Of a DNA stretch of 64,000 nt, positions 5,392 to 54,892 are shown in pieces (the first letter of the stretch is position 1; each line of letters opens with the position of its first letter). The notes beneath the pieces were generated by a model. That model was not told the origin of the DNA and made no database searches. It worked only from the letters and a program-made list of their open reading frames with translations. Source of the DNA: Cognatishimia sp. (lineage in GTDB: Bacteria > Pseudomonadota > Alphaproteobacteria > Rhodobacterales > Rhodobacteraceae); NCBI GenBank assembly GCA_050633405.1, contig JBOEGL010000007.1, positions 184,892 to 248,891 on the forward strand, written 5' to 3'. A program made the position numbers and the translations under genes.

Positions 5392-5399
5392 GCCGCTGT

Positions 5400-7220: not shown

Positions 7221-7355
7221 AGGGGCCTCTTGGGTCAGGAATTCTGTTAGGTGTCAGATAGGCAGAGCAGGGGGCAAGGTGCAAGAGGCGGAGTGTTTTA
7301 AACTTGGTTTTGACGGGGCAGCGGTTAAGTTGAAGAGAGAGCAGGAGGCAGTCCT

Positions 7356-8192: not shown

Positions 8193-8198
8193 GATACT

Positions 8199-9442: not shown

Positions 9443-9525
9443 TCGTAATCTTCCTTTGAATTGCCGCTTATTTCCCCCGCGCCGGACTAGTAAATCCCGA
9501 TGCGCAGGTTACATTCAAGAGTGTT

Positions 9526-10086: not shown

Positions 10087-10101
10087 AAAATTAAAAGGCG
10101 C

Positions 10102-36744: not shown

Positions 36745-37651
36745 AATACCCTGCGAAAAAAATGCTGAGCTGCGCCAGAAAATTTTGGAATTCGCCGAGG
36801 TTCTTAAGACCGAAGCCCACAAGCTTGGCGATCACGGTCTTGATGAACAAGATTTTTATCAATCTGGCCTGTTCCGCGGCACCATCGAACGTATTCGCGG
36901 CCAGTTTTCTGCATCAATGAAGGAAAAGCGCAGCTTTGTGGCTTTGGTTTTGACCCATATGCAAGCGCGGGGATTTGTGCGGTCTTGGGGCTCTGCCGGC
37001 GAGGCCAATCGCCACGATTATTTTGTGACCCTAAACAATGGCCGCACGGCGATCATCGAACTTAAGGGCTGTTTGGATGGCAACAACACCAATAGTTTTG
37101 AACGCCCGCCGCATGCGGATGAATTCATTATCTGGAGCGTCTGCAGCAATCCCGGGGCAGATCCGCGTCACAATGTTTGGTCAGGTATTCACACACGACT
37201 CAGTGCTGAGATGATCGACCGGGATCAGCGCATTGATGGTTTGATTGTCTGGGATTGGATATGCGGAACATCTGCGCGGCCCTGTCCAAAACTCGCGCTT
37301 GATCCGGATCGGGCCACGGATATTGGCGACTACAGGTTGCCGCCGCCCTGTATCTATTTGTTTCCTGGCACTGTCCCCAGTCCGCGCAACAACCCCAATC
37401 CGCGGGTGAATACCTTGGCTGATGTGGGCATTCTAGAAGCAATGCATCAATGTTTTGGTGGTTTTGACAGCGAACTCAACGCGGTTTCGGTGGAAGTGGC
37501 GCATCGCGATGCGGACACCGTGCGCACAACCTCGATCATCAGAGAAGGCACCGTGCAAAAGACAACAGAGCCAACACACCCATCCGGCGCAAATAAAGAG
37601 GCACGGCAGCCGCGTTTCTTGCCTAACTCAGGCCTGTTGGCCAAGGGGTAA
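36737..37651 (+). CDS. Putative PD-(D/E)XK restriction endonuclease (TTG start assumed; ORF open from 36707)
   Basis: RHDYFVTLNNGRTAIIELKG (D...E-x-K spacing); 8-nt overlap with the MTase stop; no other family recognised. Confidence 0.6.
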   Translation: MSEIPCEKNAELRQKILEFAEVLKTEAHKLGDHGLDEQDFYQSGLFRGTIERIRGQFSASMKEKRSFVALVLTHMQARGFVRSWGSAGEANRHDYFVTLNNGRTAIIELKGCLDGNNTNSFERPPHADEFIIWSVCSNPGADPRHNVWSGIHTRLSAEMIDRDQRIDGLIVWDWICGTSARPCPKLALDPDRATDIGDYRLPPPCIYLFPGTVPSPRNNPNPRVNTLADVGILEAMHQCFGGFDSELNAVSVEVAHRDADTVRTTSIIREGTVQKTTEPTHPSGANKEARQPRFLPNSGLLAKG

Positions 37652-39010
37652 ATGCAGCGTCAAGCTTGCGCCGATTTCAACCTCGTCTATTTCCAGTCGG
37701 CCACCATGTTTCTCGGCCACCGAATTTGCAATCGCCAACCCCAGACCGCTACCGCTAGAGGGTTCGAGCTGCGAAAAGCGTCTGAAGGCTGCGTCCTGCT
37801 GGCTAGGCGCAAGCCCCTTGCCATCGTCCTGAACCAAGATGCAGACCTCGTTGCCCTGCGTGAATAGGCGCAGGCAAATACTGCTGAGGTCTGGGCCCCC
37901 ATGCGTCAGAGCATTGTCGATCAGGTTCTTCACCGCCTCTGACAAATAAAGCGCATCACCCTGAAACATCACTGGACCCGGGTCTGCATCAAATTCGAAC
38001 GCAATCCCGGCTGATAACAAAACAGAACCTTGCTCTGCACAAAGGTCTTTTATCAAGGCCCGCAGGTCAAACTCGGTGAATTGCTCCATCTCGGTGGCGT
38101 GTCTTAACCGGTCCATAGACAACAGTTGTTCGGTGATCCGCGTTACATTTCTGGCAGCTTTTTCCAAATCTCTTGTGCGCTGCTTGCGGTCTTCTCCTGA
38201 CTGGGCATCCTTCACAGCTTGCGTCATTGATTGCATCGCAGCGACAGGATTTCTCAGCTGGTGTGCAGCATCAGAGATAAAGGCTTGATGAGCTTGCAGG
38301 TTGTTTTCTAGCAATGAAAATAATGAGTTAAGCGTTTTGACAATTCCTTTGGCCTCGGCGGGAACCGGGCGCTTAATCCGGCTAAGATCGTTCGGGGACC
38401 GCTCGGCGATGGCATTGCGCAGATCAATCAAGGGCCAAAGGCCCCACCCAACGCCGAACCAAACCACAAGCGCCAAGGTCAGCAATAATGCCCCCATCAA
38501 ACTTATGGCTCTGATCGCCAATTCATTGGCAAAGGCCTGCCGTTCCGCCAGCCTCTGCCAGACGGTCACCGTGGAATCCCCGCTAAGACCCTCAACCGAT
38601 ATTCGTTCGGTCAGCCGCATAACGCGCACGTTTTCGCCGCGGTAATTTGCTTCAAAAACCTCCGGGCCACCACCAATTTCAGGCGGTGCTATTTTGTCAG
38701 AATTTCCGGGGCTTGGCGGGTAGGCATAACCCGTGACATAGATCCCGCCCGGGCCAGTCGCATGGTAAAAAACCTGCCCGCCGGCCGCGTCGTCAATCAT
38801 CTCGCTGGTCGATGGCAACAGCGCGTCTCCACCTGATACCGCAACATCGCGTGATATGGCCAAAGCAGAGGCCAAAAGGCCCCGATCAAACAGCTCTTGT
38901 GCGGTTTGCTGCGCCACTATGATGCGCCAAATTCCCAGAACCGCAGCCATCAAAACCAAAGGGGTCAATATAAGGGCAAAAAGCCGGATACGTAGCGAGG
39001 CAAATCGCAT
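37628..39010 (-). CDS. tctE: Sensor histidine kinase (TctE-like)
   Basis: Two TM helices, DAAHQLRNP H-box, NLIDNAL, DDGKG, GSGLGLAI. Confidence 0.85.
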   Translation of the reverse strand: MRFASLRIRLFALILTPLVLMAAVLGIWRIIVAQQTAQELFDRGLLASALAISRDVAVSGGDALLPSTSEMIDDAAGGQVFYHATGPGGIYVTGYAYPPSPGNSDKIAPPEIGGGPEVFEANYRGENVRVMRLTERISVEGLSGDSTVTVWQRLAERQAFANELAIRAISLMGALLLTLALVVWFGVGWGLWPLIDLRNAIAERSPNDLSRIKRPVPAEAKGIVKTLNSLFSLLENNLQAHQAFISDAAHQLRNPVAAMQSMTQAVKDAQSGEDRKQRTRDLEKAARNVTRITEQLLSMDRLRHATEMEQFTEFDLRALIKDLCAEQGSVLLSAGIAFEFDADPGPVMFQGDALYLSEAVKNLIDNALTHGGPDLSSICLRLFTQGNEVCILVQDDGKGLAPSQQDAAFRRFSQLEPSSGSGLGLAIANSVAEKHGGRLEIDEVEIGASLTLHLPLGQQA

Positions 39011-39678
39011 TACAAATCCGCCGCCAGCATATAGCCAAGTCCACGCGCAGTTTTGATCGAAATGCCAAATTTTGCCAATCGTTTCCGCAGCCTAGAAACA
39101 TGCGGTTCTACCGCAGTCTCTTCGATATCCGCCCCCACACCATAAACATGATCGGTCAATTGCGCCTTAGACACAATCCGTCCGCGCCGCTCTAGCAAAC
39201 ATTCGAAAACAGCCAGTTCACGACGGGGTATATCCAGCGGTTGCCCCTGTGAAGTCACCTGTCGTGCGGTGCGGTTAAAGGCAAGCTCACCAATGGTTTC
39301 AATGTCGCCATAGTCCAACTCTTTGCGTCGCGACAAAGCTCTGATGCGGGCTTCCAGTTCATCCATTTCAAAGGGTTTGATCAAATAGTCATCTGCCCCA
39401 GCATCCAAGCCCTGCACACGATCTTTGGTCTCTGTGCGCGCGGTCAGCAAAATCACCGGTGTCCCATCATTGCGGCGGCGCATGGCGCGCAAGATCTCCA
39501 AGCCTGTGCGCCCCGGCAGATTTATATCCAAGACCACCAAATCCGCCCCTTCTTGGGTCAGGAACCGATGGGCCAAATCACCATCAACCAGAACATCCGC
39601 TGAATGCCCTCGGTCGCGCAGCCGGTACGCGATGGCATTGGCGAGAGTTTCATTGTCTTCGATGATAGCAATGCGCAT
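39010..39678 (-). CDS. tctD: OmpR-family response regulator (TctD-like)
   Basis: IIEDN, LDINLPG, GLDAGADDYLIKPF, VSRLRKRL...TARGLGY. Confidence 0.88.
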   Translation of the reverse strand: MRIAIIEDNETLANAIAYRLRDRGHSADVLVDGDLAHRFLTQEGADLVVLDINLPGRTGLEILRAMRRRNDGTPVILLTARTETKDRVQGLDAGADDYLIKPFEMDELEARIRALSRRKELDYGDIETIGELAFNRTARQVTSQGQPLDIPRRELAVFECLLERRGRIVSKAQLTDHVYGVGADIEETAVEPHVSRLRKRLAKFGISIKTARGLGYMLAADL

Positions 39679-39688
39679 TCTGTCTCCT

Positions 39689-39708
39689 GCAAGCTTGCCG
39701 CAAGGTTG
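39689..39708. promoter_or_regulatory. 11-bp-period direct repeat, candidate OmpR-family binding site
   Basis: GCAAGCTTG (39689-97) and GCAAGGTTG (39700-08) between the divergent tctD and tctC. Confidence 0.5.
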
Positions 39709-39820
39709 GTCTCCCATGATTGGACGATCGAAAGAGGGAATCAATCCCTCATTTCATATGGACAAACAACTTGGCGAGGAGGACGTTGCCGTGTTTGTCT
39801 GGTCTTAAGGGGAGGAACCA

Positions 39821-40909
39821 ATGACCAAATTTGATTTCACACGTCGTGCTGTATTGAGCGTGATTGCCGCTGCGGGTCTCGCAGCTCCTGCCGCAGCCGA
39901 GGTTGATTTTTCAGGCAAAACCATTGAATGGGTGATCCCATTTTCTGAAACAGGTGGCTCTGCCAAATGGGCCAACTTCTTTGCGCCACTGTTGTCAGAA
40001 GCCTTGCCAGGCGCGCCAACCGTTGTGGTAAAGTTTATGCCGGGGGCCGGGTCTACCAAAGGCGCGAATTGGTTCCAGTCTCAAAAGCATAAAGACGGCA
40101 CCTTGCTGTTTGGCACATCTGGTTCGACCCAATTCCCATATTTGCTGGGCGATCCACGCGTGCGTTATGAATATAACGACTGGAACACCGTAATGGCTTC
40201 GGGCACAGGTGGTGTCGCCTATCTTAATGCCGAAGATGGGGCCAAGTTTGATGGCTCTGCCAATGCATTGAAAGACATAGATTTCATCTATGGATCGCAG
40301 GGTGCAACGCGTTTGGATCTGGTGCCTTTGCTGGCCTGGGAAATGCTGGGCATGAATGTTGAACCGGTGTTTGGCATCAAAGGCCGCGGCGATGGTCGTC
40401 TGATGTTTGAACGTGGCGAGGCCACAATAGATTATCAAACATCCTCCGGATACCTGGGTGGTTCTGCGCCACTTGTCGAAGTCGGCCAAGCAGTTCCCAT
40501 GATGACCTGGGGCGCGCTTGATACGGACGGCAACATCGTGCGCGACCCGACATTTCCCGAGATTGCGACCTTCAAAGAAGTCTGCGAAGCCACAGATGGC
40601 TGCGAAACTTCGGGTGACGCTTGGGACGCTTGGAAAGCCTTCTTCGTAGCAGGGTTCCCTGTACAGAAATTGGCCTTCTTGCCTGCAGGCACACCTCAGG
40701 ACGTGATCGACACCTATACCGAAGCCTTCAACGAGGTTGTCGCGCGGGCTGACTTTGCCGAGATTTCCTCAAAGCGGGTTGGTAAATATCCGGTCTTTAC
40801 AGGTGCAGGGTCACAAGACGCGTTGGCCACAGCGACACAAGTTCCGACATCAGCCAAAGACTTTGTGGTTGGCTGGCTCAAAGACGCATATGGTGTTTCG
40901 CTGAAATAG
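39821..40909 (+). CDS. tctC: Tripartite tricarboxylate transporter substrate-binding protein
   Basis: Signal peptide, FSGKTIEWVIPFSETGGS, MPGAGS; upstream of tctA. Confidence 0.85.
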   Translation: MTKFDFTRRAVLSVIAAAGLAAPAAAEVDFSGKTIEWVIPFSETGGSAKWANFFAPLLSEALPGAPTVVVKFMPGAGSTKGANWFQSQKHKDGTLLFGTSGSTQFPYLLGDPRVRYEYNDWNTVMASGTGGVAYLNAEDGAKFDGSANALKDIDFIYGSQGATRLDLVPLLAWEMLGMNVEPVFGIKGRGDGRLMFERGEATIDYQTSSGYLGGSAPLVEVGQAVPMMTWGALDTDGNIVRDPTFPEIATFKEVCEATDGCETSGDAWDAWKAFFVAGFPVQKLAFLPAGTPQDVIDTYTEAFNEVVARADFAEISSKRVGKYPVFTGAGSQDALATATQVPTSAKDFVVGWLKDAYGVSLK

Positions 40910-40917
40910 CACACCTC

Positions 40918-40948
40918 GGGCAGGGCGACCTTTCGGTTGGCCCTGTCC
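40918..40948 (+). other. Intercistronic stem-loop after tctC
   Basis: GGGCAGGGC-GACC-TTTC-GGTT-G-GCCCTGTCC. Confidence 0.6.
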
Positions 40949-40996
40949 ACTGATCTTTCTATTAACTTTCAATAACTTAGATGAAAGGCGGCTCCC

Positions 40997-43027
40997 ATGG
41001 AGGTTTTCGCCACCGCTCTTCCTGCGCTTGGTGAAGCGTGGGCACTTATCCTGCAACCCATTGTCCTGGGCTATTTGGTGCTTGGGGTTGTAATGGGGCT
41101 TGCCGTTGGTGTGTTCCCCGGTCTTGGTGGGATCGCCGGACTGTCGCTTTTACTACCATTTATGTTCGGCATGGACCCCATTCTAGGCCTGGCCCTGATG
41201 ATTGGCATGGTCGCTGTTGTTCCAACATCTGATACCTTTGCCTCTGTTTTGATGGGCATACCTGGTTCTTCGGCCTCTCAAGCCACGGTGCTTGACGGCT
41301 TTCCAATGGCCAAAAACGGCGAGGCCGCACGCGCCTTGTCTGCTGCTTTTTCATCCTCTCTGTTTGGGGGACTGGTTGGCGCAACCTTCCTGACCATGTT
41401 CATCCTGATTGCGCGGCCAATTGTATTGGCCTTTGGCTTGCCGGAAATGCTGATGATCACGGTGTTGGGCCTGTCGATGGTTGCGGTTCTGGCAGGGCGC
41501 ATCGCGCTCAAGGGTCTGGCTGCGGCCGGGCTTGGCTTGATGATTGGCACCATTGGCGAGGCAGACGCGGGCGGCAGCCTGCGCATGGCTACCTATGACA
41601 TTCCCTATCTTACAGACGGGTTAAAGCTGGTCATTGTGGGTCTCGGTATCTTTGCTATCCCCGAAATCGTTTCCTTGCTGCGCCAAGATCGGTCGATTGC
41701 AAAAGGCGCAAGTCTTGGTGCCGGCTGGCTGGACGGCGTAAAAGACTGGGCCAACAATATTTGGCTGTCAGTACGCTGTTCTATCATCGGTGTTGTGGTT
41801 GGCGTTATTCCGGGCCTTGGCGGCTCTGTGGTCGACTGGATCGCCTATGGCCATTCAGTGCAAACCACCAAAGACAAATCCAAATTCGGCAGCGGTGAAG
41901 TGCGTGGCGTGATCGGGCCAGAAAGCTCCAACAACGCCAAAGAGGGCGGTGGGCTGGTGCCAACATTGTTGTTTGGTATTCCCGGCTCTGGCTCGATGGC
42001 GATCTTTATTGGCGCGGTTGCGCTTTTGGGATCTGGCGAGATTGAAGTTGGGCCAAGCATGCTCAAGGACAACTTGGATATCACCTATTCGATTGTTTGG
42101 TTGCTCGCGCTGGCCAATGTGGTTGGCACCATTCTGTGCATCGGCTTGTCAGGCGGCATCGCGAAACTCACGACCATTCGCTTTACCTATCTGGCCCCAT
42201 TTCTGTTTATGCTGATCAGCTTTGCAGCGTTTCAGTCTGGCCAGAACTTTGAAGATCTCTTGGCGCTGTTTGTCATTGGTTTGATTGGTATCTTCCTGCG
42301 CCGCTTTGATTGGTCGCGCCCGGCCTTCTTGATTGGTTTTGTTCTGTCAAACCCAGTTGAAAAATTCACCAACCAAGCCTTCCAGATCGCCAGCTTCCGT
42401 TTTCGCAAAAGCTTTGAAGAGGGCATCGACTATATCTTCAGCCCGATTGTGATTGTGCTGATCATTATCACAGTGGTGTCGGTGATCCTGGGCATTCGCC
42501 AAGCCAAAACCATCATGGCCGAAGGCGATGTGAAATCTGGATCTAAACGCGCGCCCTTGGTGTTCTTATTGGTGATTTCTGCCTATTTGTTGGTGGCCGT
42601 TATTAACGCGAATATGATCCCAGATTATAACATGACAGACAAAGTCATCCCTCTGGCGATTGGTTCATTTTCGGTGCTTTGCTGCCTTATCCTGATGGTG
42701 CAAATGATGCGCCGTCCCGAGGGCGATGTGATCTTTGCCGACAAAGAAGTGGCGGGCGAAGACGCTGATGCCCCCTATGGTCTGTGGTCAACTTTGGCTT
42801 GGTTTGCCGCCTTGATCGCGGGCACTTGGTTTGTCGGCTTTATCCTGGCTCTGGTTGGCTTTCTTGTGGCCTTTCTGCGGGTGCGCGCAGGTGCGGGTTG
42901 GGGCAAAACCCTGCTGCTAACAGCTTGTGGCATTGGCTTTATGTGCCTGATGGCAGGCGCGTTGAACCGTGATTTTCCTCCGGGACTTTTGCAAGGAGCA
43001 GTGGATCTGCCTTGGCCGCTAAAATGA
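40997..43027 (+). CDS. tctA: Tripartite tricarboxylate transporter permease, TctA with fused C-terminal TctB-like part
   Basis: GVFPGLGG, GIPGSSASQATVLDGFPMA, GPESSNNAKEGG, LFGIPGS, plus ~170 extra residues with 4-5 TM helices. Confidence 0.88.
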   Translation: MEVFATALPALGEAWALILQPIVLGYLVLGVVMGLAVGVFPGLGGIAGLSLLLPFMFGMDPILGLALMIGMVAVVPTSDTFASVLMGIPGSSASQATVLDGFPMAKNGEAARALSAAFSSSLFGGLVGATFLTMFILIARPIVLAFGLPEMLMITVLGLSMVAVLAGRIALKGLAAAGLGLMIGTIGEADAGGSLRMATYDIPYLTDGLKLVIVGLGIFAIPEIVSLLRQDRSIAKGASLGAGWLDGVKDWANNIWLSVRCSIIGVVVGVIPGLGGSVVDWIAYGHSVQTTKDKSKFGSGEVRGVIGPESSNNAKEGGGLVPTLLFGIPGSGSMAIFIGAVALLGSGEIEVGPSMLKDNLDITYSIVWLLALANVVGTILCIGLSGGIAKLTTIRFTYLAPFLFMLISFAAFQSGQNFEDLLALFVIGLIGIFLRRFDWSRPAFLIGFVLSNPVEKFTNQAFQIASFRFRKSFEEGIDYIFSPIVIVLIIITVVSVILGIRQAKTIMAEGDVKSGSKRAPLVFLLVISAYLLVAVINANMIPDYNMTDKVIPLAIGSFSVLCCLILMVQMMRRPEGDVIFADKEVAGEDADAPYGLWSTLAWFAALIAGTWFVGFILALVGFLVAFLRVRAGAGWGKTLLLTACGIGFMCLMAGALNRDFPPGLLQGAVDLPWPLK

Positions 43028-44124
43028 GCCAGACAGCCATTCCATATCTGTTCATGCGGGGCGGGACGTCACGTGGGCCATATTTCCGGCGCGAAGACCT
43101 GCCTGAAAACTTGGACCAACTCGCCGAGGTTCTGATCTCTGTCGTTGGATCCGGGCACGCGCTTAATATCGACGGGATCGGCGGCGGGGCCGCCGTGACC
43201 ACCAAGGTTGCCATGTTGTCTGCAAGCCAAGACGACTGGGCAGATGTCGACTATTTTTTTGCGCAGGTTTCGGTCACCGAAAAGCTTGTCGACTTCAAAC
43301 CAACCTGCGGTAATATCATGTCTGGGGTTGGCCCTGCCGCCCTAGAGATGGGGCTGGTCAGCCCCTCTGGTGACACCACCGAGATCAAAATCCTCTCGGT
43401 CAACACCGGCGCTCGGGTGATCGCCAAAGTGCAAACGCCTGACCGGCAATTGGACTATACGGGCGACACCGAAATCGCGGGCGTGCCTGGCACTGCCGCG
43501 CCGGTTCAGCTGACCTTTATGGGGGTTGTTGGCGCATCTACCGGGGCATTTTTGCCTTCGGGAAATGTGCAAGATACCATCGAGGGCATTGACGTCACCT
43601 GCATGGATGTTGCGATGCCGATGGTGATCGCGCGGGCGCAAGACTTTGGTTTGACCGGCTATGAAAGCGCACAAGAACTGGATGAAAACAAAGATTTCTT
43701 CCGTCAGATGGAGCGCATCCGCATCGCAGCCGGTAAACGCATGGGCATGGGCGATGTGTCAAAATCGGTCACGCCCAAATTTGGCCTCCTGGCCCCTGCA
43801 CAGCAAGGCGGCACTATTGCGGCGCGTTACTTTATGCCGTGGAGCACGCATCCAACCATGGCTGTGACCGGCGCGCAATGCCTTGCCTCTTGTGCCTTAA
43901 CACCCGGTACTGTGGCAGATGGCATGTTGGAACGCGCCAAAGAAAGCCCAACCAATGTGGTGCTTGAACACCCCTCCGGGACCATCGAGGTCCTGGTCGA
44001 TTTTGAGACCAGAAACGGCTTCAGTCTGAATGCCGCTGGTCTGGTCCGCACCGCCCGAAAACTGGCAGACGGTCAGGTTTATGTCCCCGAAACCGTATGG
44101 GGCCAACCAAAGGAAAACGTATGA
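43024..44124 (+). CDS. PrpF family isomerase/tautomerase
   Basis: FMRGGTSRG, IDGIGGG..TTKV, CGN, MDVAMP, EHPSG, RTARKL. Confidence 0.9.
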   Translation: MSQTAIPYLFMRGGTSRGPYFRREDLPENLDQLAEVLISVVGSGHALNIDGIGGGAAVTTKVAMLSASQDDWADVDYFFAQVSVTEKLVDFKPTCGNIMSGVGPAALEMGLVSPSGDTTEIKILSVNTGARVIAKVQTPDRQLDYTGDTEIAGVPGTAAPVQLTFMGVVGASTGAFLPSGNVQDTIEGIDVTCMDVAMPMVIARAQDFGLTGYESAQELDENKDFFRQMERIRIAAGKRMGMGDVSKSVTPKFGLLAPAQQGGTIAARYFMPWSTHPTMAVTGAQCLASCALTPGTVADGMLERAKESPTNVVLEHPSGTIEVLVDFETRNGFSLNAAGLVRTARKLADGQVYVPETVWGQPKENV

Positions 44125-44939
44125 ATCTTCGAAATATTCTGGTTGCCTTTAATGGCTCTGACAGTGCACTGACGGCCCTGCGATATGCGGCGTCTTTGGC
44201 CGGGGATAACGCCCATGTCACCGCCTTGCTGGCCCATTCAACACACGAAGTTGTAAACAGCCAAGCTGCTTGGGTTCCGGCAAAAGCGCGTGAAATTATC
44301 AACCAAGCCAACGCCGATATTCTCAGCGAGATCGAGGCCCGGTTTGCGACGGTAAAGGCCGAGCTCTCGCTTGGGGATCGCCTGCATTTTGAGCGTCGCT
44401 CAGGACGTGTGGACGCGGTGCTTTCAGAAAGTGCCCGCAGCTTTGATATTTTGGTCGTCGGGCAGGATCAGGATGAAAACGTCGATAATCATGTGTCGCT
44501 GCACCCAGATCGCATTGCCTTGATGAGCGGACGGCCAGTATTGATTGTACCCGTTGGTGCCAAGGCTCCAAAAGGCACGGTTGATGCGGCCGTCGCTTGG
44601 GATGGTGGTCGGGCCTCGGCGCGGGCACTTTCAGATTGGTTAACGCTGGTAGATGCGCAAAGTAAGCTCACGGTGTTGACCGTTGGGGACCAAGCCTTGC
44701 CACGTCCCGAAGCAGAGATGATGCTGCATCTTCAGCGCCATGGCGTCGCTGCAACACTTCAAAACATCGCTGCAGATCCTGGTGTCGCGCGGGCGCTTTT
44801 GGCCTATTGTAAATCACATGGTCCCAACCTTTTGGTGATGGGGGCCTATGAGCATTCCAAATTTCGGGAAGACTTCCTGAGTGGGGTGACAGCACGGGTT
44901 ATCCGGGCCACTCCAATTCCAATTCTCTTATCGCATTAA
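44121..44939 (+). CDS. Universal stress protein (two USP domains)
   Basis: ILVAFNGS, AWDGGRASARA, LVMGAYEHSKFRE...GVT. Confidence 0.88.
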   Translation: MNLRNILVAFNGSDSALTALRYAASLAGDNAHVTALLAHSTHEVVNSQAAWVPAKAREIINQANADILSEIEARFATVKAELSLGDRLHFERRSGRVDAVLSESARSFDILVVGQDQDENVDNHVSLHPDRIALMSGRPVLIVPVGAKAPKGTVDAAVAWDGGRASARALSDWLTLVDAQSKLTVLTVGDQALPRPEAEMMLHLQRHGVAATLQNIAADPGVARALLAYCKSHGPNLLVMGAYEHSKFREDFLSGVTARVIRATPIPILLSH

Positions 44940-44951
44940 AGGCGCGAAAAA

Positions 44952-45140
44952 ATGACCTCACAAGAAGCAAGACAAAAACTGAATCAAGCACTTGAACTGC
45001 TAAAATCCGTACAAGACGGGTTGGGCGGTCAAATCTGTGAATCAGAAAAGAGCGGCGTCCATGACGTTGAAGCGCGCAATATTACGGATCTGCACGACCG
45101 GGCGGCGCGGGCCATCAACGCCTATAACAAAGGAAGCTAA
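44952..45140 (+). CDS. 62-aa hypothetical helical protein
   Basis: Fills the gap between USP and the dehydrogenase with 12- and 3-nt spacers; amphipathic sequence. Confidence 0.65.
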   Translation: MTSQEARQKLNQALELLKSVQDGLGGQICESEKSGVHDVEARNITDLHDRAARAINAYNKGS

Positions 45141-45143
45141 ATC

Positions 45144-46118
45144 TTGAAGGTTCACATTCTTGACGATTGGTTTGATACGTTGCGGCAGTTGCCCTGTTTT
45201 GCGCGTTTGTCAGGCCATGATGTCACGGTGTGGACAGATCAGGTGACCGACGAAGCCGTTTTGGCACAACGTCTGCAAGAGGCTGAGTGCCTCGTGCTGT
45301 TTCGCGAACGTACCAAGATCACCCGCAGCCTGCTGCAACAATTGCCAAACCTGCGATTGATCAGCCAGCGCAGTGTCTACCCGCATGTGGATGTGCAGGC
45401 CTGTAGCGATCAAAATGTGTTGCTGTGTTCGAATATGCACGCTGGAACCCCATCGTTTGCAGCCGCTGAATTGACCTGGGCGCTGATCATGTCCGCAATG
45501 CGTGACCTGCCTGCACAAATGGCCTCGGCCAAATCCGGCCATTGGCAAATGGGGGTTGGCAAAACCCTGCGCGGTCGTCAGCTGGGCCTGTTTGGCTATG
45601 GCCGCATCGCCAAAGCTGTTGCCCAATATGCCAAGGCGTTTGGGATGAATACGGTTTGGTGGTCGTCAGAAGAAGGCCGCGCCCGGGCCGACGCCGATGG
45701 GCAAACGGTGGCAGAGAGCCGCAAAGCGTTTTTCAGCCAAAGCGACGTTGTCTCGTTGCATGTGCGGCTCAAACCGAGCACGCATGCGATCATCACCGCG
45801 CAAGATTTCGCTGCGATGAAACCGTCCTCGACCTTTATCAACACGTCGCGCGCCGGATTGATTGCACCGGGGGCCTTGCTATCCGCCTTGCAGGCTGGAC
45901 ACCCCGGCCAAGCTGCGATTGATGTCTTTGATACAGAGCCGATGACGGACCCCAATGACCCATTGTTGTCGCATCCCAAGCTGATTGCGACGCCCCACAT
46001 TGGGTTTGTGACCGAAGATGAATTTGAACTTCAGTTCTCTGATATCTTTGATCAGGTGAATGCCTATGCAGACAAAGCGCCCATTCACATGATCAATCCG
46101 ACGGTTTGGGCAGGCTAA
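45144..46118 (+). CDS. D-isomer-specific 2-hydroxyacid dehydrogenase
   Basis: LGLFGYGRIA, SLHVRL, INTSRAG, DVFDTEP, TPHIG; TTG start. Confidence 0.9.
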   Translation: MKVHILDDWFDTLRQLPCFARLSGHDVTVWTDQVTDEAVLAQRLQEAECLVLFRERTKITRSLLQQLPNLRLISQRSVYPHVDVQACSDQNVLLCSNMHAGTPSFAAAELTWALIMSAMRDLPAQMASAKSGHWQMGVGKTLRGRQLGLFGYGRIAKAVAQYAKAFGMNTVWWSSEEGRARADADGQTVAESRKAFFSQSDVVSLHVRLKPSTHAIITAQDFAAMKPSSTFINTSRAGLIAPGALLSALQAGHPGQAAIDVFDTEPMTDPNDPLLSHPKLIATPHIGFVTEDEFELQFSDIFDQVNAYADKAPIHMINPTVWAG

Positions 46119-47008
46119 ACCATTGTGCGGATCAGTTCCTTTAATGTGATCGCTGCCCTGGTTTCTGATTGACCCAGCCGGGTTACCAGACCAACGGACC
46201 GCGTGATCTTGAGATCGCTGATGGGGCGCATCACAATGCGCGGATCATCGGCCACAGAGTCCGGCAACAGGGCCACACCCACCCCCTGCGCGACCATATC
46301 CAGTGCCGTCGACGAACGACTGGCCTCAAAGGACCAAGGTATTTGCACCTGGGCTTTTGCCATCGCGTCATCAATCAACAGACGGTTTCCAGTGCCTTTG
46401 GCGGGTAAAATGAGCGGTTCAGCTCGAAGGTGCGCAAGAAGCACTTCACCGCCATTGGTCAGGTCATGGCCGCACGGTAGCGCCAGCGAAATGCGCTCTT
46501 GGAACAGCGGGTCAAATAAAACCGAAGGCTCTGAGGGTGGGGTGGGGCAAATGCCAAAATCGGCCAGGCCTTCGCTGACCGCTTCTGCCACTTCGTTGGC
46601 AGAGCCATCCAGCAATCGAACACGTGCCTGCGTGCCACTTGACTGAAACCGTGACAATGCTGGCAGAAAAATCCGTGTCAAAGTGGTTGGCACCAGCGCC
46701 ACCGTCACCACAGCGTTGCGTTGGTGGGCAAAGGCAACGCTGTCATCGCGCATGGATTGGGTGGTCTCCCAGGCGTCCGCCAAAATGGCTTCGGCGCGGC
46801 TTTGTAAGCGTTTTGCCGCTAATGTGGGCCGAACCTGACGGGTACTGCGCTCAAACAACACGGTGCCAAGCGCCTCTTCCAGTTTCTGAATACGGCGCGT
46901 GATGGCGGATTGTGACAGGTTGAGTTTGGCCGCAGCCAAATGAAACGACCCGGTGTCTTTCACCACCAAAAACGCCTGAAGGTCACCAAAGTCATAATTA
47001 ATGTGCAT
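46115..47008 (-). CDS. LysR family regulator (TcuR-like)
   Basis: GSFHLAAAKLNLSQSAITRRIQKLEEALG; divergent from tcuA. Confidence 0.92.
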   Translation of the reverse strand: MHINYDFGDLQAFLVVKDTGSFHLAAAKLNLSQSAITRRIQKLEEALGTVLFERSTRQVRPTLAAKRLQSRAEAILADAWETTQSMRDDSVAFAHQRNAVVTVALVPTTLTRIFLPALSRFQSSGTQARVRLLDGSANEVAEAVSEGLADFGICPTPPSEPSVLFDPLFQERISLALPCGHDLTNGGEVLLAHLRAEPLILPAKGTGNRLLIDDAMAKAQVQIPWSFEASRSSTALDMVAQGVGVALLPDSVADDPRIVMRPISDLKITRSVGLVTRLGQSETRAAITLKELIRTMV

Positions 47009-47015
47009 AGCGCAT
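47001..47015. promoter_or_regulatory. Candidate LysR T-N11-A box overlapping the regulator start
   Basis: ATGTGCATAGCGCAT (ATG-N9-CAT). Confidence 0.45.
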
Positions 47016-47086
47016 CAATATCACACAAACCTGCATTCGTCAAATTAACAGGCATTCTCTACACTGGTTTTATCGTGGAGAAGCAG

Positions 47087-48472
47087 ATGAAATCACAGTA
47101 TGACATAGCAGTTATTGGGGGCGGCAACGCAGGCTTATGCGCGGCGATCACCGCTGCAGAGGCCGGCGCAAAAGTAGTGATACTAGAGGCCGCGCCCAAA
47201 GCCTATCGTGGCGGCAATTCACGCCACACGCGCAATTTTCGCTGTATGCACGCGGGCCCTTTGGGGCCGCTGACCGGCAGCTATAGCCCGCAAGAATACT
47301 TTGAGGACCTGCTGAAAGTCACCGGCGGCAAAACAGATGAAACACTGGCACGGTTAGCCATTCAGCAATCCGAAGAGTGCTTGCCGTGGATGCAAGCCCA
47401 CGGTGTCAGGTTTCAACCTTCATTGTCTGGCACGTTGTCTTTGGCGCAAACCAACGCTTTCTTTCTTGGCGGCGGCAAAGCACTGGTGAATGCGTATTAT
47501 CGCACGGCTCTGTCTCTTGGCGTTGACGTGTTCTACGACACCAAAGTCACGCATCTACAGCAAAATGATGGCCATATCGACTGGGTCGATTTTGAACAAA
47601 ACGGCCATAAGAAACGTCTGACGCCAACGGCTGTCATTGTGGCTTCGGGTGGGTTTCAGGCCGACACAGACTGGCTTGCCCGCGCTTGGGGCCCCGCCGC
47701 CAAAAACTTTCTCATCCGTGGCACGCCCTATAACAAAGGGGTGGTTCTGGCCGATTTGCTAAAGCAAGATGTGACGCAGGTGGGGGACCCAACCCAATGC
47801 CACGCGGTTGCCATTGATGGGCGCGCGCCAAAATTTGATGGCGGTATTGTCACCCGTCTGGACTGTGTGCCGTTTTCCATCGTTGTGAACAACCTGGGTG
47901 ACCGTTTTTATGACGAAGGCGAAGACGTCTGGCCCAAACGCTATGCGATTTGGGGCCGCTTGGTGGCCGCGCAGCCTGATCAGGTGGGGTATGCGATCAT
48001 TGATTCAAAGTCTCTGGATCTGTTTATGCCCTCGGTCTTTCCGCCCATCAAGGCAGAGAGTTTGCCGGAACTGGCCAACAAAATGGGCCTGCCAGCAGAA
48101 CAGCTTTGCAAGACAGTAAAGCACTTCAATGCGGCCTGTGGTGACAGTGGTGGATTTCACCCAAACACATTGGACGGCGTGACAACCACAGGACTTGAAC
48201 CCGCCAAAACCAATTGGGCACGGCCGATCTCTGACCCCCCTTTTTATGGCTATAGCCTGCGCACCGGGGTGACCTTCACCTACCTGGGTTTGCAGGTAGA
48301 CAGCAAAGCGCAATGCGCCACCGCGCAGGGTCCCATTCGAAACCTTTGGGCTGCGGGTGAAACCATGGCCGGGTCCATTCTGGGGCAGGGCTATCTGGCA
48401 GGCTTTGGCATGACCATTGGCACTGTCTTTGGCCGCATCGCAGGTCAGGAGGCCGCAAACTATGCAAACTGA
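47087..48472 (+). CDS. tcuA: FAD-dependent tricarballylate dehydrogenase
   Basis: IGGGNAGLCAA, RGGNSRHTRNFRCMH, TNAFFLGGGKAL, HAVAIDGRAPKFDGGIVTRLD. Confidence 0.92.
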   Translation: MKSQYDIAVIGGGNAGLCAAITAAEAGAKVVILEAAPKAYRGGNSRHTRNFRCMHAGPLGPLTGSYSPQEYFEDLLKVTGGKTDETLARLAIQQSEECLPWMQAHGVRFQPSLSGTLSLAQTNAFFLGGGKALVNAYYRTALSLGVDVFYDTKVTHLQQNDGHIDWVDFEQNGHKKRLTPTAVIVASGGFQADTDWLARAWGPAAKNFLIRGTPYNKGVVLADLLKQDVTQVGDPTQCHAVAIDGRAPKFDGGIVTRLDCVPFSIVVNNLGDRFYDEGEDVWPKRYAIWGRLVAAQPDQVGYAIIDSKSLDLFMPSVFPPIKAESLPELANKMGLPAEQLCKTVKHFNAACGDSGGFHPNTLDGVTTTGLEPAKTNWARPISDPPFYGYSLRTGVTFTYLGLQVDSKAQCATAQGPIRNLWAAGETMAGSILGQGYLAGFGMTIGTVFGRIAGQEAANYAN

Positions 48473-49526
48473 ACATTTGAAGGAAGCCCACAGACAAGTC
48501 GAAATCTGCAACGCCTGCCGCTATTGCGAGGGGTTTTGCGCGGTCTTCCCAGCCATGCATGCGGAACGCGCCTTTTCTGACGGGGATATCACCCAGTTTG
48601 CAAATCTTTGCCACAACTGCCGAGGCTGCTATTACGCCTGTCAGTACACTGCGCCGCATGAATTTGATTTGAATTTGCCGGCCGCCTTGGCCGAAGTGCG
48701 CCGTGAAAGTTGGGAAAACTATGTTTGGCCACAGGTGCTGGCGCGTGGTTTTCAGACCAACGGCTTAAAAATTTGCGCAGCCGTTGCGGCCTGTCTTATC
48801 TTTTTGATCTTGTTTGTGACATTTGTGGCCGGAGAGGGCGATGGATTTTATGCCCATCTGTCTCACAATGCGATGATTGCCTTGTTTATCCCAGCATTCC
48901 TGCTGCCGCTTTTGGGGCTGGGCATGGGGGTGCATCGGTATTGGAAAGATATTGGCGGCACGCGCATCAAATGGGCGCATATCAAGCAGGCCTTTGCCAA
49001 TGTCGCGGCAATGAAAAACCTGTCTGGCGGGCATGGTGACGGCTGTAACTTTGAAGAACAAGACCGCTTCAGTCATCAACGACGTTATGCGCATCACGCC
49101 ATCATGTATGGGTTTCTTTTGTGTTTTGCCGCCACCAGCGCGGGCACCGTTATGCATTATCTGCTGGACCTTCCTGCACCCTATGCTGGGGTGTCTGTGC
49201 CCAAATTGTTCGGCGTGCCGGGGGGCATTCTGCTGACGATAGGATGCGGCTGGATGATGTCGCTCAAATTGCGCTCTGAAAAGGCGCTGGGGGACGTCAA
49301 GGCCTGGGGCGCAGAGATTGGCTTTACGGCGCTGCTGGGCAGCGTGGCCTTTACCGGGCTGTTGCTGTGGATATGGGGAGCGGCCAGAGGGGCAGAAACC
49401 CTATTGGCCATTCATCTGGGGTTTGTTCTGGCGTTTTTCCTGCTGTTACCTTTCACCAAAATGGCACATGGGATCTTTCGCTTGGCGGCTTTGATCTTTG
49501 ACGCACAAAGGCAGCTTAAAGCGTAA
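48462..49526 (+). CDS. tcuB: Tricarballylate utilization 4Fe-4S membrane protein
   Basis: CNACRYCEGFCAVFP, CHNCRGCYYACQY, PFTKMAH. Confidence 0.92.
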   Translation: MQTEHLKEAHRQVEICNACRYCEGFCAVFPAMHAERAFSDGDITQFANLCHNCRGCYYACQYTAPHEFDLNLPAALAEVRRESWENYVWPQVLARGFQTNGLKICAAVAACLIFLILFVTFVAGEGDGFYAHLSHNAMIALFIPAFLLPLLGLGMGVHRYWKDIGGTRIKWAHIKQAFANVAAMKNLSGGHGDGCNFEEQDRFSHQRRYAHHAIMYGFLLCFAATSAGTVMHYLLDLPAPYAGVSVPKLFGVPGGILLTIGCGWMMSLKLRSEKALGDVKAWGAEIGFTALLGSVAFTGLLLWIWGAARGAETLLAIHLGFVLAFFLLLPFTKMAHGIFRLAALIFDAQRQLKA

Positions 49527-49579
49527 ACCAACCTTTAGCTTTGCATTCAAATCCTCTGACAAGCTTGCTAAGCTGGGGT

Positions 49580-50134
49580 ATGACTGGTGAGCTCTCAAAG
49601 TATTTTCCGCTGCGCAAAGGCCGCACCCACGAAGCCTTTGGGGCCAATGCCAAAAGCATGGCCTTTGCTTTGGCCGGGCAATTGCGTGGCCCGGTGCTGT
49701 GGATCAGAGAGGCCTGGTTGACCGATCAGATCAACCCGGCGGGCTTTGCAGACTATGTGGACCCTGCGCAAGTTTTGGTTGTGAAGGGCAAAGAGCAAAG
49801 CGATGTTCTGGCCGCCGCCGAAGAATCCCTGCGCTCCGGCGCGGTGGTTTTGACCGTGATCGAACTCAGCAAGCCGATTGGTTTGACCGCCGGGCGGCGT
49901 TTGCAGCTGGCGGCAGAGGTGGGCAAGTCCACTGGACTGTGTCTGATTGCCGATGGCATGGGCAGCAATGCTGCGGAAACCCGCTGGCAATGTGAACCGC
50001 TTTTTGATCAGAGCGACTCGACTCTGCAGCGCTGGCAGCTTAAAAAGAACAAATCAGGAACATTGACAGGTTGGGATGTCCGTTGGGATGCCAAGACGCA
50101 TCGTATCATTGTGGTTTCCAAGGCTGGCGAGTGA
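49580..50134 (+). CDS. imuA: ImuA (SulA/RecA-like) mutagenesis protein
   Basis: ALAGQLRGPVLW, EESLRSGAV, RRLQLAAE.G, AAETRW; first gene of the cassette. Confidence 0.85.
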   Translation: MTGELSKYFPLRKGRTHEAFGANAKSMAFALAGQLRGPVLWIREAWLTDQINPAGFADYVDPAQVLVVKGKEQSDVLAAAEESLRSGAVVLTVIELSKPIGLTAGRRLQLAAEVGKSTGLCLIADGMGSNAAETRWQCEPLFDQSDSTLQRWQLKKNKSGTLTGWDVRWDAKTHRIIVVSKAGE

Positions 50135-51554
50135 TCGCTTTCTTCGGGTGCGCCCGATGGATGGCCCCTTTGTACTGACTCACCGGCACAGCAATGCAGA
50201 CCGGGTGTATTGCTTGAACGACGCCGCGCTGAAACAGGGGTTGCAGGCGGGCATGGGCTATGCGGATGCCCGCAGCTTTTGCCCTGATTTGCAAAGCGCT
50301 CCAGCCGATCTTGCGGCGGATCAGCACTTTCTGAAAACTCTGGCGCGCTGGGCAAAACGCTATTGTCCCTGGGTGGGGTTAGATGCGCCAGATGGGCTGG
50401 TGCTGGACGTCACCGGGGCCACCCATTTGTTTGGTGGCGAAGAATCCCTGTTGCAAGACATGCACCTGCGTCTGGCCCGTGCCGGGCTGACGGCCCGCAC
50501 CGGGCTGGCCGATACCCGTGGTGCGGCTTGGGCGCTGGCGCATTATGGGCGGGGTATTGCCGCCGCAGGGCATCCGCTACAGGCCATCGGCGCATTGCCC
50601 GTGGCGGCCCTGCGCTTGCCGGAAAAACCCATTGTCGCCCTGCAACGCTTGGGCCTTCGAACCATCGCAGACCTCATCGCAGTGCCCCGCGCCACGCTCA
50701 CCAGACGGTTTGATGCAGATGTGATGCTGCGGCTGGATCAGGCGCTGGGCAAAGTGCCCGAAAGCATCTCGCCGCTGCCGGATCCGCCACGCTATCAAAT
50801 GCGCCTCAGCCTGCCAGAGCCGATTGGGATGGCCGCTGATGTGATGGCGGGCACCGAACGGCTGCTGGTGCAATTATGTGACCGTCTGAAAGCCCATGAG
50901 AAGGGCGCAAGATTGCTAAGCCTGACCCTGCGGCGCGTGGATCAGGCCAGCCAGGTTGTCGAGTTGCGACTGGCGCGGCCCATGCGCAACCCGGCGCGTA
51001 TTCTGCCGCTGTTTGAGCGCGGCATCGCGGCGGCGGATGCGGGATTTGGCATTGATCAGCTGCGGCTGGCTGCCCTGCAGGTCGAACCCCTAGAGGTGCG
51101 GCAAACCACCCATCAGCAAGGGGCCCCAAATGACAAATTGGATGATCTGATCACCCGGATTGGCAACCGTATTGGTCTGGAAAATATCCAGCGATTTTTG
51201 CCGGCAGACAGCCATATCCCGGAACGCAGCTTTCTGATTGCCCCGGCGGCCTGGTCAGACCCTGCCAAATTTGCACCGCCGCAGCGCCAAAGACCGCTGC
51301 AGCTTTTCCCGCCAGAGCCGATCTATGGCCAGGGGGCGCGTCCGCCCAGACAGTTTCGCTGGCGACGTATGGCGCTGACCGCCGGGCGGGTCACCGGCCC
51401 GGAACGCATTGCGCCGGAATGGTGGCTGTCTGACGACAATTGGCGCTCTGGCCTGCGTGACTATTGGAAGGTAGACACCAAACAGGGGCGGCGGCTGTGG
51501 CTGTTTTACACGCCGCAGAAACCCGGCTGGTTTGTGCAGGGGGAATTTGCATGA
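50088..51554 (+). CDS. imuB: ImuB, inactive Y-family polymerase-like protein
   Basis: SLWFPRL (no DxDxF catalytic motif), GMGYADARSFCP, GPERIAPEWW, RDYW. Confidence 0.9.
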   Translation: MPRRIVSLWFPRLASDRFLRVRPMDGPFVLTHRHSNADRVYCLNDAALKQGLQAGMGYADARSFCPDLQSAPADLAADQHFLKTLARWAKRYCPWVGLDAPDGLVLDVTGATHLFGGEESLLQDMHLRLARAGLTARTGLADTRGAAWALAHYGRGIAAAGHPLQAIGALPVAALRLPEKPIVALQRLGLRTIADLIAVPRATLTRRFDADVMLRLDQALGKVPESISPLPDPPRYQMRLSLPEPIGMAADVMAGTERLLVQLCDRLKAHEKGARLLSLTLRRVDQASQVVELRLARPMRNPARILPLFERGIAAADAGFGIDQLRLAALQVEPLEVRQTTHQQGAPNDKLDDLITRIGNRIGLENIQRFLPADSHIPERSFLIAPAAWSDPAKFAPPQRQRPLQLFPPEPIYGQGARPPRQFRWRRMALTAGRVTGPERIAPEWWLSDDNWRSGLRDYWKVDTKQGRRLWLFYTPQKPGWFVQGEFA

Positions 51555-54500: not shown

Positions 54501-54892
54501 CGCGCACCATTGTCTGTGGTCTGGTTATCACCCGCCAACGCCCCGGCACCGCCTCGGGCGTGGTGTTTCTGACGCTCGAGGACGAAACCGGCGTGTCCAA
54601 TGTGGTGGTCTGGCCCAAGGTCTATGAGAAATTCCGGCGGGTGGTGATGGGCGGCCGCTTGCTGCGCGTCACCGGCTATCTGCAACGCGAAGGCATTGTT
54701 GTGCATCTGATTGCCCAGAATATCGAAGATATGTCGCACCGCCTGGCCAGCCTTGGGCACCCAATGGACGAAGTGATTGGCGAAACCTTACCACAGGCCG
54801 ATGACACACCGCGCCCACGCAAACCCGCCCCCAGCGCAAGGCACCCGCGTGAACAGGCCAAACGGCTCTTTCCCAGCCGCGATTTCCACTAG
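51551..54892 (+). CDS. dnaE2: Error-prone DNA polymerase DnaE2 (ImuC)
   Basis: PHP domain, GRGSAANS, PDIDVDFEHERREE, YGFPESHA, C-terminal SRDFH. Confidence 0.96.
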   Translation: MTHDPALVSPTAGYAELCVTSNFTFLTGASHPEELVTRAAELNLEAIAITDRNSLAGVVRAYSALKILKDEAAEDIRIRSQHRIDSCSRQEVGHPEPISQPEMIKLPKLIVGCRLCLTDSAVDWVALPCDRAAYARLTRLLTLGKRRAPKGACYLQHADLLDGCQGMILIALPGDHLRAGALHIQALQRRYPGFVFVGAVPRYDGSDQAYFDACAYLARRTAAPMVAAGDVLMHRGSRRQLADVLTCMRDHITIDDIGTRALPNAERRLKPYADMARLYRNHPAAIRRSMDIAARCSFCLSELSYEYPDEITGGETPQARLTRLAHEGLKRRYPKGPTEKAIAQVKKELILVEKLKFPAYFLTVHDIVQFARSQGILCQGRGSAANSILCYLLGITDVSPEIIAMVVERFVSEHRGEPPDIDVDFEHERREEVIQHIYEKYGRHRAGLCATVIHFRSRAAIREVGKVMGLSQDVTASLSGQIWGQSNGGADLDRVRELGLDPTERRLGQTLQLIGEIIGFPRHLSQHVGGFVITKGRLDELCPIENAAMEDRTIIEWDKDDIDALNILKVDVLGLGMLSCIRKSFDLLKQHDHKTLSIATVPQEDKATYDMLCVADAIGVFQVESRAQMNFLPRMKPREFYDLVIEVAIVRPGPIQGGMVQPYIKRRQGLEQAEPFGSALEEVTKKTLGVPLFQEQAMQIAVVGAGFTPEEADHLRRSLASFRRMGTIGTFKEKFITGMLKNGYDTEVAERCFSQIEGFADYGFPESHAAAFAMLAYVSAWLKRHHPAVFACALLNSQPMGFYAPAQIVRDVREHQVEVRPICVNNSTWDNTLERRTDGALALRLGFRQIKGFKEEDAGWIVAARGNGYPDPEGLWLRAGLSPPTLERLAEADAFNTMGLTRRDALWQVKAIRSQQPLPLFNDPIDGESIQEPTVDLPQMNLGEEVVEDYVAMRLTLRAHPMELLRPAMPGLTPHADLAAAPLARTIVCGLVITRQRPGTASGVVFLTLEDETGVSNVVVWPKVYEKFRRVVMGGRLLRVTGYLQREGIVVHLIAQNIEDMSHRLASLGHPMDEVIGETLPQADDTPRPRKPAPSARHPREQAKRLFPSRDFH

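Follow-up and report, generated by a model that had tools for sequence, protein, structure and literature searches.

A gene cluster at positions 37628-49526 of a 64,000-nucleotide stretch of Cognatishimia sp. DNA (assembly GCA_050633405.1, contig JBOEGL010000007.1; this whole stretch is referred to as the window) probably serves to take up tricarballylate and acids of the aconitate type and to channel them into the tricarboxylic acid (TCA) cycle. The cluster encodes a TctE/TctD-like two-component system, a substrate-binding protein (SBP) and a permease of the tripartite tricarboxylate transporter (TTT) type, a PrpF-family isomerase, a universal stress protein (USP), a 62-residue protein, a D-2-hydroxyacid dehydrogenase (2-HADH), a LysR-type regulator and the tricarballylate dehydrogenase pair TcuA and TcuB, and it is proposed to be a self-contained module for tricarboxylic acid use. 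It is real and widely shared among marine Rhodobacteraceae, and the gene arrangement is far beyond chance. The components belong to known families (tcu, TTT, PrpF, 2-HADH and USP). New are their constant combination, a transporter of two genes whose receptor Pfam does not detect, a distinct isomerase clade that carries a doubtful name, and two to three conserved members without an assigned role.

Conservation of the cluster

In total, 84 loci were fetched, 74 of which have enough flanking sequence for gene counts. The response regulator, SBP, TctA-TctB (TctAB) permease and PrpF-family genes are present in 74/74 loci, the kinase gene in 72/74, the dehydrogenase gene in 69/74 and tcuAB in 62/74. 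Among 301 Rhodobacteraceae genus representatives, 87 have an SBP ortholog and 91 have TcuA; the two are found together in 65 genera, and in 46 of these the two genes lie within 12 kb of each other. This co-occurrence corresponds to an odds ratio of 21 (Fisher p 7e-26 over the 301 genera, uncorrected for phylogeny). In another 17 of the genera with both, SBP and TcuA are encoded on different contigs, mostly of fragmented assemblies. In 22 genera the SBP is present and TcuA is found nowhere in the genome, a pattern that fits a substrate requiring only the isomerase. A preliminary description of this DNA had staked its interpretation on the joint occurrence of the transporter operon and tcuAB in other genomes, and this part of it is borne out; its statements on the regulators and on rarity are corrected below. 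The direct observations of this analysis are the identities of the genes, their assignment to families and folds, the synteny and co-occurrence, and the repeat conserved in the promoter.

Linkage of the operon with tcuAB is maintained through three gene orders. In type II, the SBP is ~60-68% identical, and tcuBA and a GntR gene, usually with an AbrB-family gene, are divergent from an operon that encodes SBP, TctAB, PrpF, a thiamine pyrophosphate (TPP) enzyme and the dehydrogenase. This architecture lacks the two-component system and the USP. The nearest solved relatives of its TPP enzyme are 2-hydroxyacyl-CoA lyase and acetolactate synthases, and no equivalog cut-off is met. In type III, the type I order is repeated with a transporter of ~50% identity. 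Finally, in a metagenome-assembled genome (MAG) of Bauldia, 39 bp separate the dehydrogenase gene from the tcuA gene behind it, such that the two halves form a single co-directional run.

Synteny of the whole cluster extends to Aliiroseovarius, Roseibium and Hoeflea, where the flanks are unrelated, and copies are found on plasmids (of diatom-associated Pseudosulfitobacter pseudonitzschiae, Sagittula and others) and near transposition genes. With flanks that vary between genomes and copies on plasmids, the cluster is mobile. One contig labelled Nocardioides marinus (L046) carries a Rhodobacteraceae-type cluster at ~75% identity, which suggests that this assembly is contaminated or mislabelled.

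Gene layout in the window

All of the genes named in the preliminary description were found between 37628 and 49526, at the following positions; the transporter, which it had called tripartite, consists of an SBP and a TctA-TctB fusion, with no separate tctB gene at the cluster.

37628-39010, minus strand: TctE-like sensor histidine kinase (Pfam 2CSK_N, HisKA, HATPase_c)
39010-39744, minus strand: TctD-like OmpR-family response regulator (Response_reg and Trans_reg_C)
39689-39704, plus strand: direct repeat GCAAGcttgccGCAAG, putative response-regulator binding site in the promoter of the transporter operon
39734-39799, plus strand: conserved leader of the SBP gene (hairpin, GC-rich stem, then Shine-Dalgarno GGGAGGA)
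39821-40909, plus strand: divergent TctC/Bug-fold periplasmic binding protein (SBP), 362 aa
40997-43027, plus strand: fused TctA-TctB permease, 676 aa (Pfam TctA)
43012-44124, plus strand: PrpF-family allylic isomerase of the YbhH-sister clade, proposed aconitate isomerase (Pfam PrpF)
44097-44939, plus strand: tandem USP (Pfam Usp, two stretches)
44952-45140, plus strand: conserved two-helix protein, 62 aa, with homologues at the same position
45144-46118, plus strand: D-2-hydroxyacid dehydrogenase (Pfam 2-Hacid_dh and 2-Hacid_dh_C)
46115-47008, minus strand: LysR-type regulator, divergent from tcuAB (HTH_1 and LysR_substrate)
47087-48472 (open reading frame from 46940), plus strand: TcuA, FAD-dependent tricarballylate dehydrogenase (NF006130, TIGR02485)
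48417-49526, plus strand: TcuB, Fe-S membrane partner of TcuA (TIGR02484)

The run from the SBP gene to the dehydrogenase gene contains six genes with gaps of at most 87 nt. The LysR gene is convergent with this operon and divergent from tcuA-tcuB, from which it is separated by an intergenic region of ~78 bp. Based on N-terminal residues and the lengths of homologues (366 aa and 272 aa), the PrpF-family protein probably starts at ATG 43024, overlapping the permease stop codon, and the USP probably starts at ATG 44121, overlapping the PrpF stop codon. If these are the true starts, ATGA start/stop overlaps likely join TctAB to PrpF and PrpF to USP. The start of the response regulator is probably near 39678, and that of TcuA is likely ATG 47087, behind GGAGAAG.

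Outside of the cluster, an imuA-imuB-dnaE2 mutagenesis cassette (49541-54892) lies directly downstream of tcuB, and a pair of C5-methyltransferase genes lies upstream.

TcuA and TcuB

Both proteins of the tcuAB half exceed cut-offs of NCBI equivalog models. For TcuA, the scores are 659 bits on NF006130 (cut-off 369) and 578 bits on TIGR02485 (cut-off 372.55), and the genome encodes one copy of it. For TcuB, they are 329 bits on TIGR02484 (cut-off 246.6) and 377 bits on NF011607, which is under the cut-off of 524 for that model.

A two-gene transporter with a divergent receptor

The binding protein has no match to any Pfam or NCBIfam model, and as a single query it reaches only E ~0.7 against Bug27 and MatC. 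In contrast, a profile built from 55 members of its family matches BugE, MatC, BugD, TBP/TphC, AdpC and Bug27 with E values from 1e-21 to 1e-14. Its AlphaFold (AF2) model has a pLDDT of 94.5, and the top Foldseek matches of this model are BugE, MatC, TBP/TphC and BugD, with TM-scores of 0.7-0.8 (normalised to target length). Because the family profile and the structural comparison agree, the binding protein is assigned, at the level of sequence profile and predicted fold, as a divergent TctC that is ~60 residues longer and carries a twin-arginine (Tat-type) signal, FTRRAVL. The family comprises 263 clusters at 50% identity (E <1e-30), and orthologs of the binding protein in many Rhodobacteraceae genera and in Roseibium and Hoeflea share 80-90% identity.

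The permease, with a length of 676 aa that is maintained across homologous loci, has a TctA domain at residues 24-445 (PF01970, 373 bits), while its C-terminal 208 aa give a weak match to Pfam TctB (E 2.6e-4, 21.6 bits vs a cut-off of 29.1). The transporter is, in sum, a two-gene TTT variant composed of a TctC-fold SBP and a TctA-TctB fusion. Fusions of this type are termed rare in a review that also gives the gene order SBP, TctA, TctB for slcHFG (PMC5812351). The SBP and fusion genes are the only transporter genes among those assigned at 37628-49526, and no major facilitator superfamily (MFS) carrier was found among them.

The PrpF-family isomerase and its database name

The isomerase scores 336 bits on Pfam PF04303 and falls far under the cut-off of the NCBI PrpF model. 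On NF033377, the equivalog model for 4-oxalomesaconate (OMA) tautomerase, it passes marginally, at 468 bits vs a cut-off of 440, and PGAP gives its orthologs that name. Its closest PDB matches are E. coli YbhH (6otv, 2.5e-98) and, second, LigU (1.8e-85). The catalytic Lys and Cys of LigU, K66 and C100, are matched in the alignment by the segments TTKVAM and TCGNIM. A maximum-likelihood (ML) tree places the TTT-linked copies in a 100/100 clade of their own that is sister to YbhH and does not contain LigU; the latter groups with the LigK-linked copies in a second 100/100 clade (LigU/GalD).

A comparison within the same genome is possible, as contig C3 carries a complete protocatechuate-4,5-cleavage/gallate lower-pathway cluster (L006, 5045-12052) with genes for LigB, a LigI-type hydrolase (Amidohydro_2), a PrpF-like protein, LigK, a PIG-L-type hydratase (GalB), a LysR regulator and a LigC-like protein. 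The OMA isomerase of this contig is 41% identical to the cluster enzyme and scores 518 bits on NF033377. Similarly, at a Roseivivax locus the LigK-linked copy scores 525 bits, vs 469 for the TTT-linked copy. Neither an OMA hydratase nor a CHA aldolase is encoded in the cluster of the window, and a CHA aldolase above the TIGR02798 cut-off is encoded in only 3/26 cluster-bearing genomes, with 23/26 lacking one. Because this genome has a complete OMA cluster with its own isomerase, because LigK-linked copies score 518-525 bits and TTT-linked copies 468-469, because the two groups separate in the ML tree, and because CHA aldolase is so rarely present, the name "4-oxalomesaconate tautomerase" is, as judged from these comparisons, probably wrong for the cluster enzyme. 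Identity as an OMA tautomerase was largely rejected on the separate clade, the C3 paralog and the rarity of CHA aldolase.

The same data bear on an alternative in which the transporter operon serves the lower gallate/protocatechuate 4,5-cleavage route. In this case, ring-fission tricarboxylates such as 4-oxalomesaconate, or the reduced 2-hydroxy form of that compound, would be taken up, the 2-oxo acid would arise by action of the dehydrogenase, the PrpF-like protein would be a true OMA tautomerase/isomerase and tcuAB would be an unrelated passenger. The NF033377 score with the PGAP name and the rank of LigU among the PDB matches speak for this alternative, as do the operon of a Roseivivax plasmid, which adjoins genes for a PIG-L-type hydratase, a CHA aldolase and a second OMA tautomerase, and a 48%-identical Rhizobium dehydrogenase encoded beside an RraA-family gene. 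However, the higher-scoring LigK-linked clade, the complete set of LigB, LigI, PrpF, LigK, GalB and LigC genes already present on C3, the scarcity of the aldolase and the lack of a hydratase or aldolase gene in the conserved cluster make it quite improbable. Instead, the context of the cluster led us to propose that the enzyme isomerises aconitate.

Several related loci were recorded. The Roseivivax marinus plasmid locus (L088, 1990-13245) carries a type II transporter-isomerase-TPP-dehydrogenase operon that adjoins genes for TauE, the PIG-L-type hydratase, the CHA aldolase and a second, true OMA tautomerase, and a hybrid pathway is possible there. In the Cognatishimia genome, contig C17 encodes a fourth PrpF paralog beside an AcnD-like aconitase; this is presumably the true PrpF of the 2-methylcitrate cycle. 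A second, paralogous TTT/PrpF module is present on contig C31 (L005, 1-10053) and consists of two MmgE/PrpD-family genes, an SBP (30% identical), a fused TctAB (43%), a PGA_cap/CapA-like gene, a PrpF-like gene and a LysR gene. The PrpF-like protein of C31 is 66% identical to the cluster enzyme and nests within the type I clade. The C31 module probably serves a different tricarboxylate, and the transporter-isomerase pair would therefore be reused for other acids.

The dehydrogenase, the USP and the small protein

The dehydrogenase contains PF02826 and PF00389 domains and meets no equivalog cut-off. Its SRAG, DTEP and PHIG motifs, with the catalytic Arg, Glu and His, align with those of its best PDB matches, 4s1v and 3gg9. 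Both are uncharacterised structural-genomics entries, and a literature search for either entry found no paper. A homolog search returned only same-cluster orthologs and no functional clue; relatives of 48-65% identity sit with TTT, AbrB and PrpD genes or with an RraA-family gene. One further locus (L101 of genome G284, 629-12300) has genes for a TetR regulator, a TRAP transporter, an MBL-fold protein, a GST and an FAH-family protein before dehydrogenase-AbrB-GntR-tcuAB, and there the PrpF-like and TPP enzymes may be replaced by a GST-type isomerase and an FAH-type enzyme. The dehydrogenase is retained in all three architectures. As architectures II and III and the FAH/TRAP locus all keep it, the dehydrogenase accompanies the transporter-isomerase half as well as the tcuAB half, and it is often paired with a candidate decarboxylase.

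A more far-reaching role for this enzyme was considered. The D-2-hydroxy acids include D-threo-isocitrate, and in Salmonella the activity of isocitrate dehydrogenase is inhibited by tricarballylate (PMC8593673). On these two grounds, the dehydrogenase could be an inhibitor-proof bypass, that is, a new type of isocitrate (or hydroxy-tricarboxylate) dehydrogenase, unrelated to the classical beta-decarboxylating family, on a route from aconitate to 2-oxoglutarate that would stay open in cells with tricarballylate in the cytoplasm. This proposal is doubtful. If it is true, the TPP-dependent or FAH-family enzymes of the sister clusters would decarboxylate the 2-oxo acid product and, together with the fused transporter and the YbhH-like isomerase, the system would represent an undescribed, widespread marine tricarboxylate pathway.

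It is also conceivable that the transporter and the dehydrogenase act on a hydroxy-sulfonate such as 3-sulfolactate, in a manner similar to SlcHFG/SlcC, with the later steps encoded elsewhere. The SBP-TctA-TctB order noted for slcHFG (PMC5812351) is shared, one source labels an ortholog of the dehydrogenase "(S)-sulfolactate dehydrogenase", TauE/SafE-type exporter genes are near two related loci, and the type II TPP enzyme is distantly like Xsc and acetolactate synthase. However, this label is automatic, the TPP enzyme scores 162-168 bits vs Xsc cut-offs of 620-676, and the constant partners, the PrpF-like isomerase and TcuAB, are carboxylate enzymes. Because the conserved set has no desulfonating enzyme, action on a hydroxy-sulfonate is judged unlikely, and indeed very much so.

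The USP, present in 44/74 loci, has two domains. In other proteins of this kind, the ATP-binding motif is G-2x-G-9x-G(S/T), and TeaD-like USPs are regulators of SBP-dependent carriers. By eye, both ATP-motif positions of the cluster USP are degenerate, e.g. GAYEHSKFREDFLSGVT. The 62-aa open reading frame is, on sequence comparison, a real gene: among 63 related loci with a gap of at least 150 bp before the dehydrogenase gene, about three quarters have a homologue at the same position. The small protein occurs in two forms, of 51-62 aa and ~78 aa, with the longer form found mostly in clusters that lack the USP. L17, R50 and A54 are invariant within a two-helix pattern. Pfam searches with both forms gave no match, and the copy on the P. 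pseudonitzschiae plasmid is labelled hypothetical by PGAP.

Regulators and the promoter repeat

The best NCBIfam match of the response regulator is TctD, at 201.6 bits vs a cut-off of 337, in an alignment that begins at residue 23. An exact direct repeat, GCAAG-N6-GCAAG, is located 111-136 nt before the SBP start in 79/84 loci, and the copy at 39689-39704 is the sole exact one in the window. The 11-bp spacing of the repeat would suit an OmpR-family regulator. A second site upstream of tcuA, which would mean common control, was found in none of the loci within the few hundred bases examined. As the repeat sits only upstream of the transporter operon, the two operons seem to be under separate switches, namely the two-component system and the LysR (or GntR) regulator.

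Between the repeat and the SBP gene, the upstream alignment shows a leader hairpin, GAGGGAATCAATCCCTC, at 39734-39750, followed at 39761-39799 by a second, GC-rich stem of variable sequence in which pairing is kept across genera. Both stems are retained by RNAalifold, with compensatory changes at 7/11 pairs. Roles in mRNA stability or attenuation are possibilities.

The cluster LysR has no match to a TcuR-specific model, and its best NCBIfam match, PsrA, is below cut-off. The two regulators of the preliminary description are thus both present, but they appear to control separate operons, and a LysR of the window type is a minority form found in only 6/74 loci. In the majority form, an AbrB-family membrane protein and a GntR/FCD regulator are encoded between the dehydrogenase gene and tcuA. 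Such an AbrB-family (PF05145) protein and GntR/FCD regulator accompany tcuAB in most relatives (e.g., L087, 9950-11766; L013, 13039-14619; L107; L109). Because the AbrB-GntR-tcuAB set is also found on its own, without the transporter, a possible role of the AbrB-family protein is that of a tricarballylate carrier not recognised so far.

This separation of the switches could indicate two unrelated systems that are kept next to each other on mobile DNA, with a two-component-controlled operon for one substrate and a LysR-tcuAB pair that handles tricarballylate brought in by another carrier. Apart from the separate regulators and the repeat at the transporter operon only, this reading draws on the 12/74 loci from which tcuAB is missing, on genomes with AbrB-GntR-tcuAB or tcuAB alone and no transporter, and on the interchangeability of the regulator between the halves (LysR, or AbrB plus GntR). 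Nevertheless, the linkage is kept through three gene orders at 50-90% identity, one MAG joins the halves co-directionally across 39 bp, the genome-level odds ratio is 21, and the window version has no other transporter candidate for TcuAB. Two unrelated systems are consequently regarded as unlikely.

Proposed pathway and comparison with known systems

In the proposed pathway, the two-gene TTT-type secondary transporter would take up tricarballylate and aconitate-type acids. TcuA and TcuB would produce cis-aconitate by oxidation of tricarballylate, with transfer of the electrons to the membrane, and the conserved Lys/Cys pair of the PrpF-family enzyme would move the double bond in trans-aconitate (or in a close analogue) to give cis-aconitate. 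Housekeeping aconitase AcnA and then a monomeric isocitrate dehydrogenase, encoded in the same genome on contigs C5 and C9, respectively, would complete entry into the TCA cycle. The TctE/TctD-like system is proposed to sense external substrate and to activate the SBP-to-dehydrogenase operon through GCAAG-N6-GCAAG, whereas the LysR regulator would act like Salmonella TcuR and separately activate tcuAB. Modulation of the transporter is the probable role of the tandem USP and the small protein, and the best guess for the dehydrogenase is oxidation of isocitrate or another 2-hydroxy-tricarboxylate to the 2-oxo acid. For this scheme, we infer all substrates, the direction of the isomerase, the signals of the regulators and the roles of the USP, small protein and dehydrogenase.

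A limited literature search found no characterised pathway with the full composition of the cluster, in agreement with the preliminary description. The composition is, however, less exceptional than that description implied, because the cluster is common and routinely annotated at the family level. One of the closest known systems is tcuRABC of Salmonella enterica, which shares adjacent, co-directional TcuA/TcuB equivalogs, a divergent LysR gene and the expected product, cis-aconitate (cited in PMC2606687). In comparison, the cluster lacks the MFS carrier TcuC and has a TTT-type system instead, adds the isomerase, dehydrogenase, USP, small protein and two-component system, and in most of its relatives has GntR and an AbrB-family membrane protein in place of LysR. 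Salmonella TctCBA/TctDE (TTT, TC 2.A.80) shares a TctA permease, a TctC-fold receptor and a divergent OmpR-type two-component system. It differs in that the TctB of the cluster is fused to the C-terminus of TctA, the receptor is ~60 residues longer and missed by Pfam TctC, and the order is SBP-A-B.

In Bacillus, the TarAB transporter and PrpF-superfamily aconitate isomerase suffice for trans-aconitate assimilation, and TbrA and Adi1 are other aconitate isomerases of this superfamily (PMC11495376). The tarR-tarAB genes of Bacillus velezensis resemble the cluster in having a transporter gene directly before a PrpF-superfamily isomerase gene and a local activator (PMC11495376). However, the Bacillus transporter is an MFS protein and that of the cluster a TTT system, and the cluster isomerase, of the YbhH/LigU-like branch, is a putative functional counterpart of TarA. 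E. coli YbhH (6otv) and LigU/GalD are the best structural relatives of the cluster isomerase and conserve the catalytic Lys and Cys, yet the cluster isomerase is in a clade distinct from LigU/GalD, and the pathway partners of the latter are missing from the cluster. Finally, Acinetobacter baylyi ADP1 has tcuA, tcuB, tcuC and two TcuR-like LysR genes (ACIAD1536-1543; PMC2606687). Unlike the cluster, ADP1 has an MFS carrier and lacks the TTT, two-component system, dehydrogenase and USP. Presumably a PrpF-family gene is also among the tcu genes of ADP1; a literature search for a tclR/pacI description in this strain found no paper.

Several points weigh against the proposed pathway. With cis-aconitate as the sole product, the dehydrogenase and the type II TPP enzyme are unneeded, and a marine natural source of tricarballylate is not established. 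As tcuAB is absent from 12/74 loci and 26/91 TcuA-bearing genera have no close SBP ortholog, the two halves can work apart. An NCBI equivalog model labels the isomerase a 4-oxalomesaconate tautomerase, certain relatives of the cluster adjoin OMA hydratase and CHA aldolase genes, and the isomerase clade is without any characterised member. YbhH, its nearest solved relative, has no known substrate (PMC9068703). Nonetheless, the import of tricarballylate and aconitate-type acids for the TCA cycle is, as a whole, the best explanation and probably correct.

These results have consequences for annotation and for the biology of the family. The whole clade to which the PrpF-family enzyme belongs is probably mislabelled "4-oxalomesaconate tautomerase" in public annotation, and Pfam misses a large family of TctC-like binding proteins. 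For the dehydrogenase, the small protein and the orphan protein YbhH of E. coli, a short list of candidate substrates now makes tests possible. The transporter core is found in ~29% of sampled Rhodobacteraceae genera and moves on plasmids and islands, and the system is therefore probably a significant organic-acid uptake route of abundant marine heterotrophs, including diatom-associated strains.

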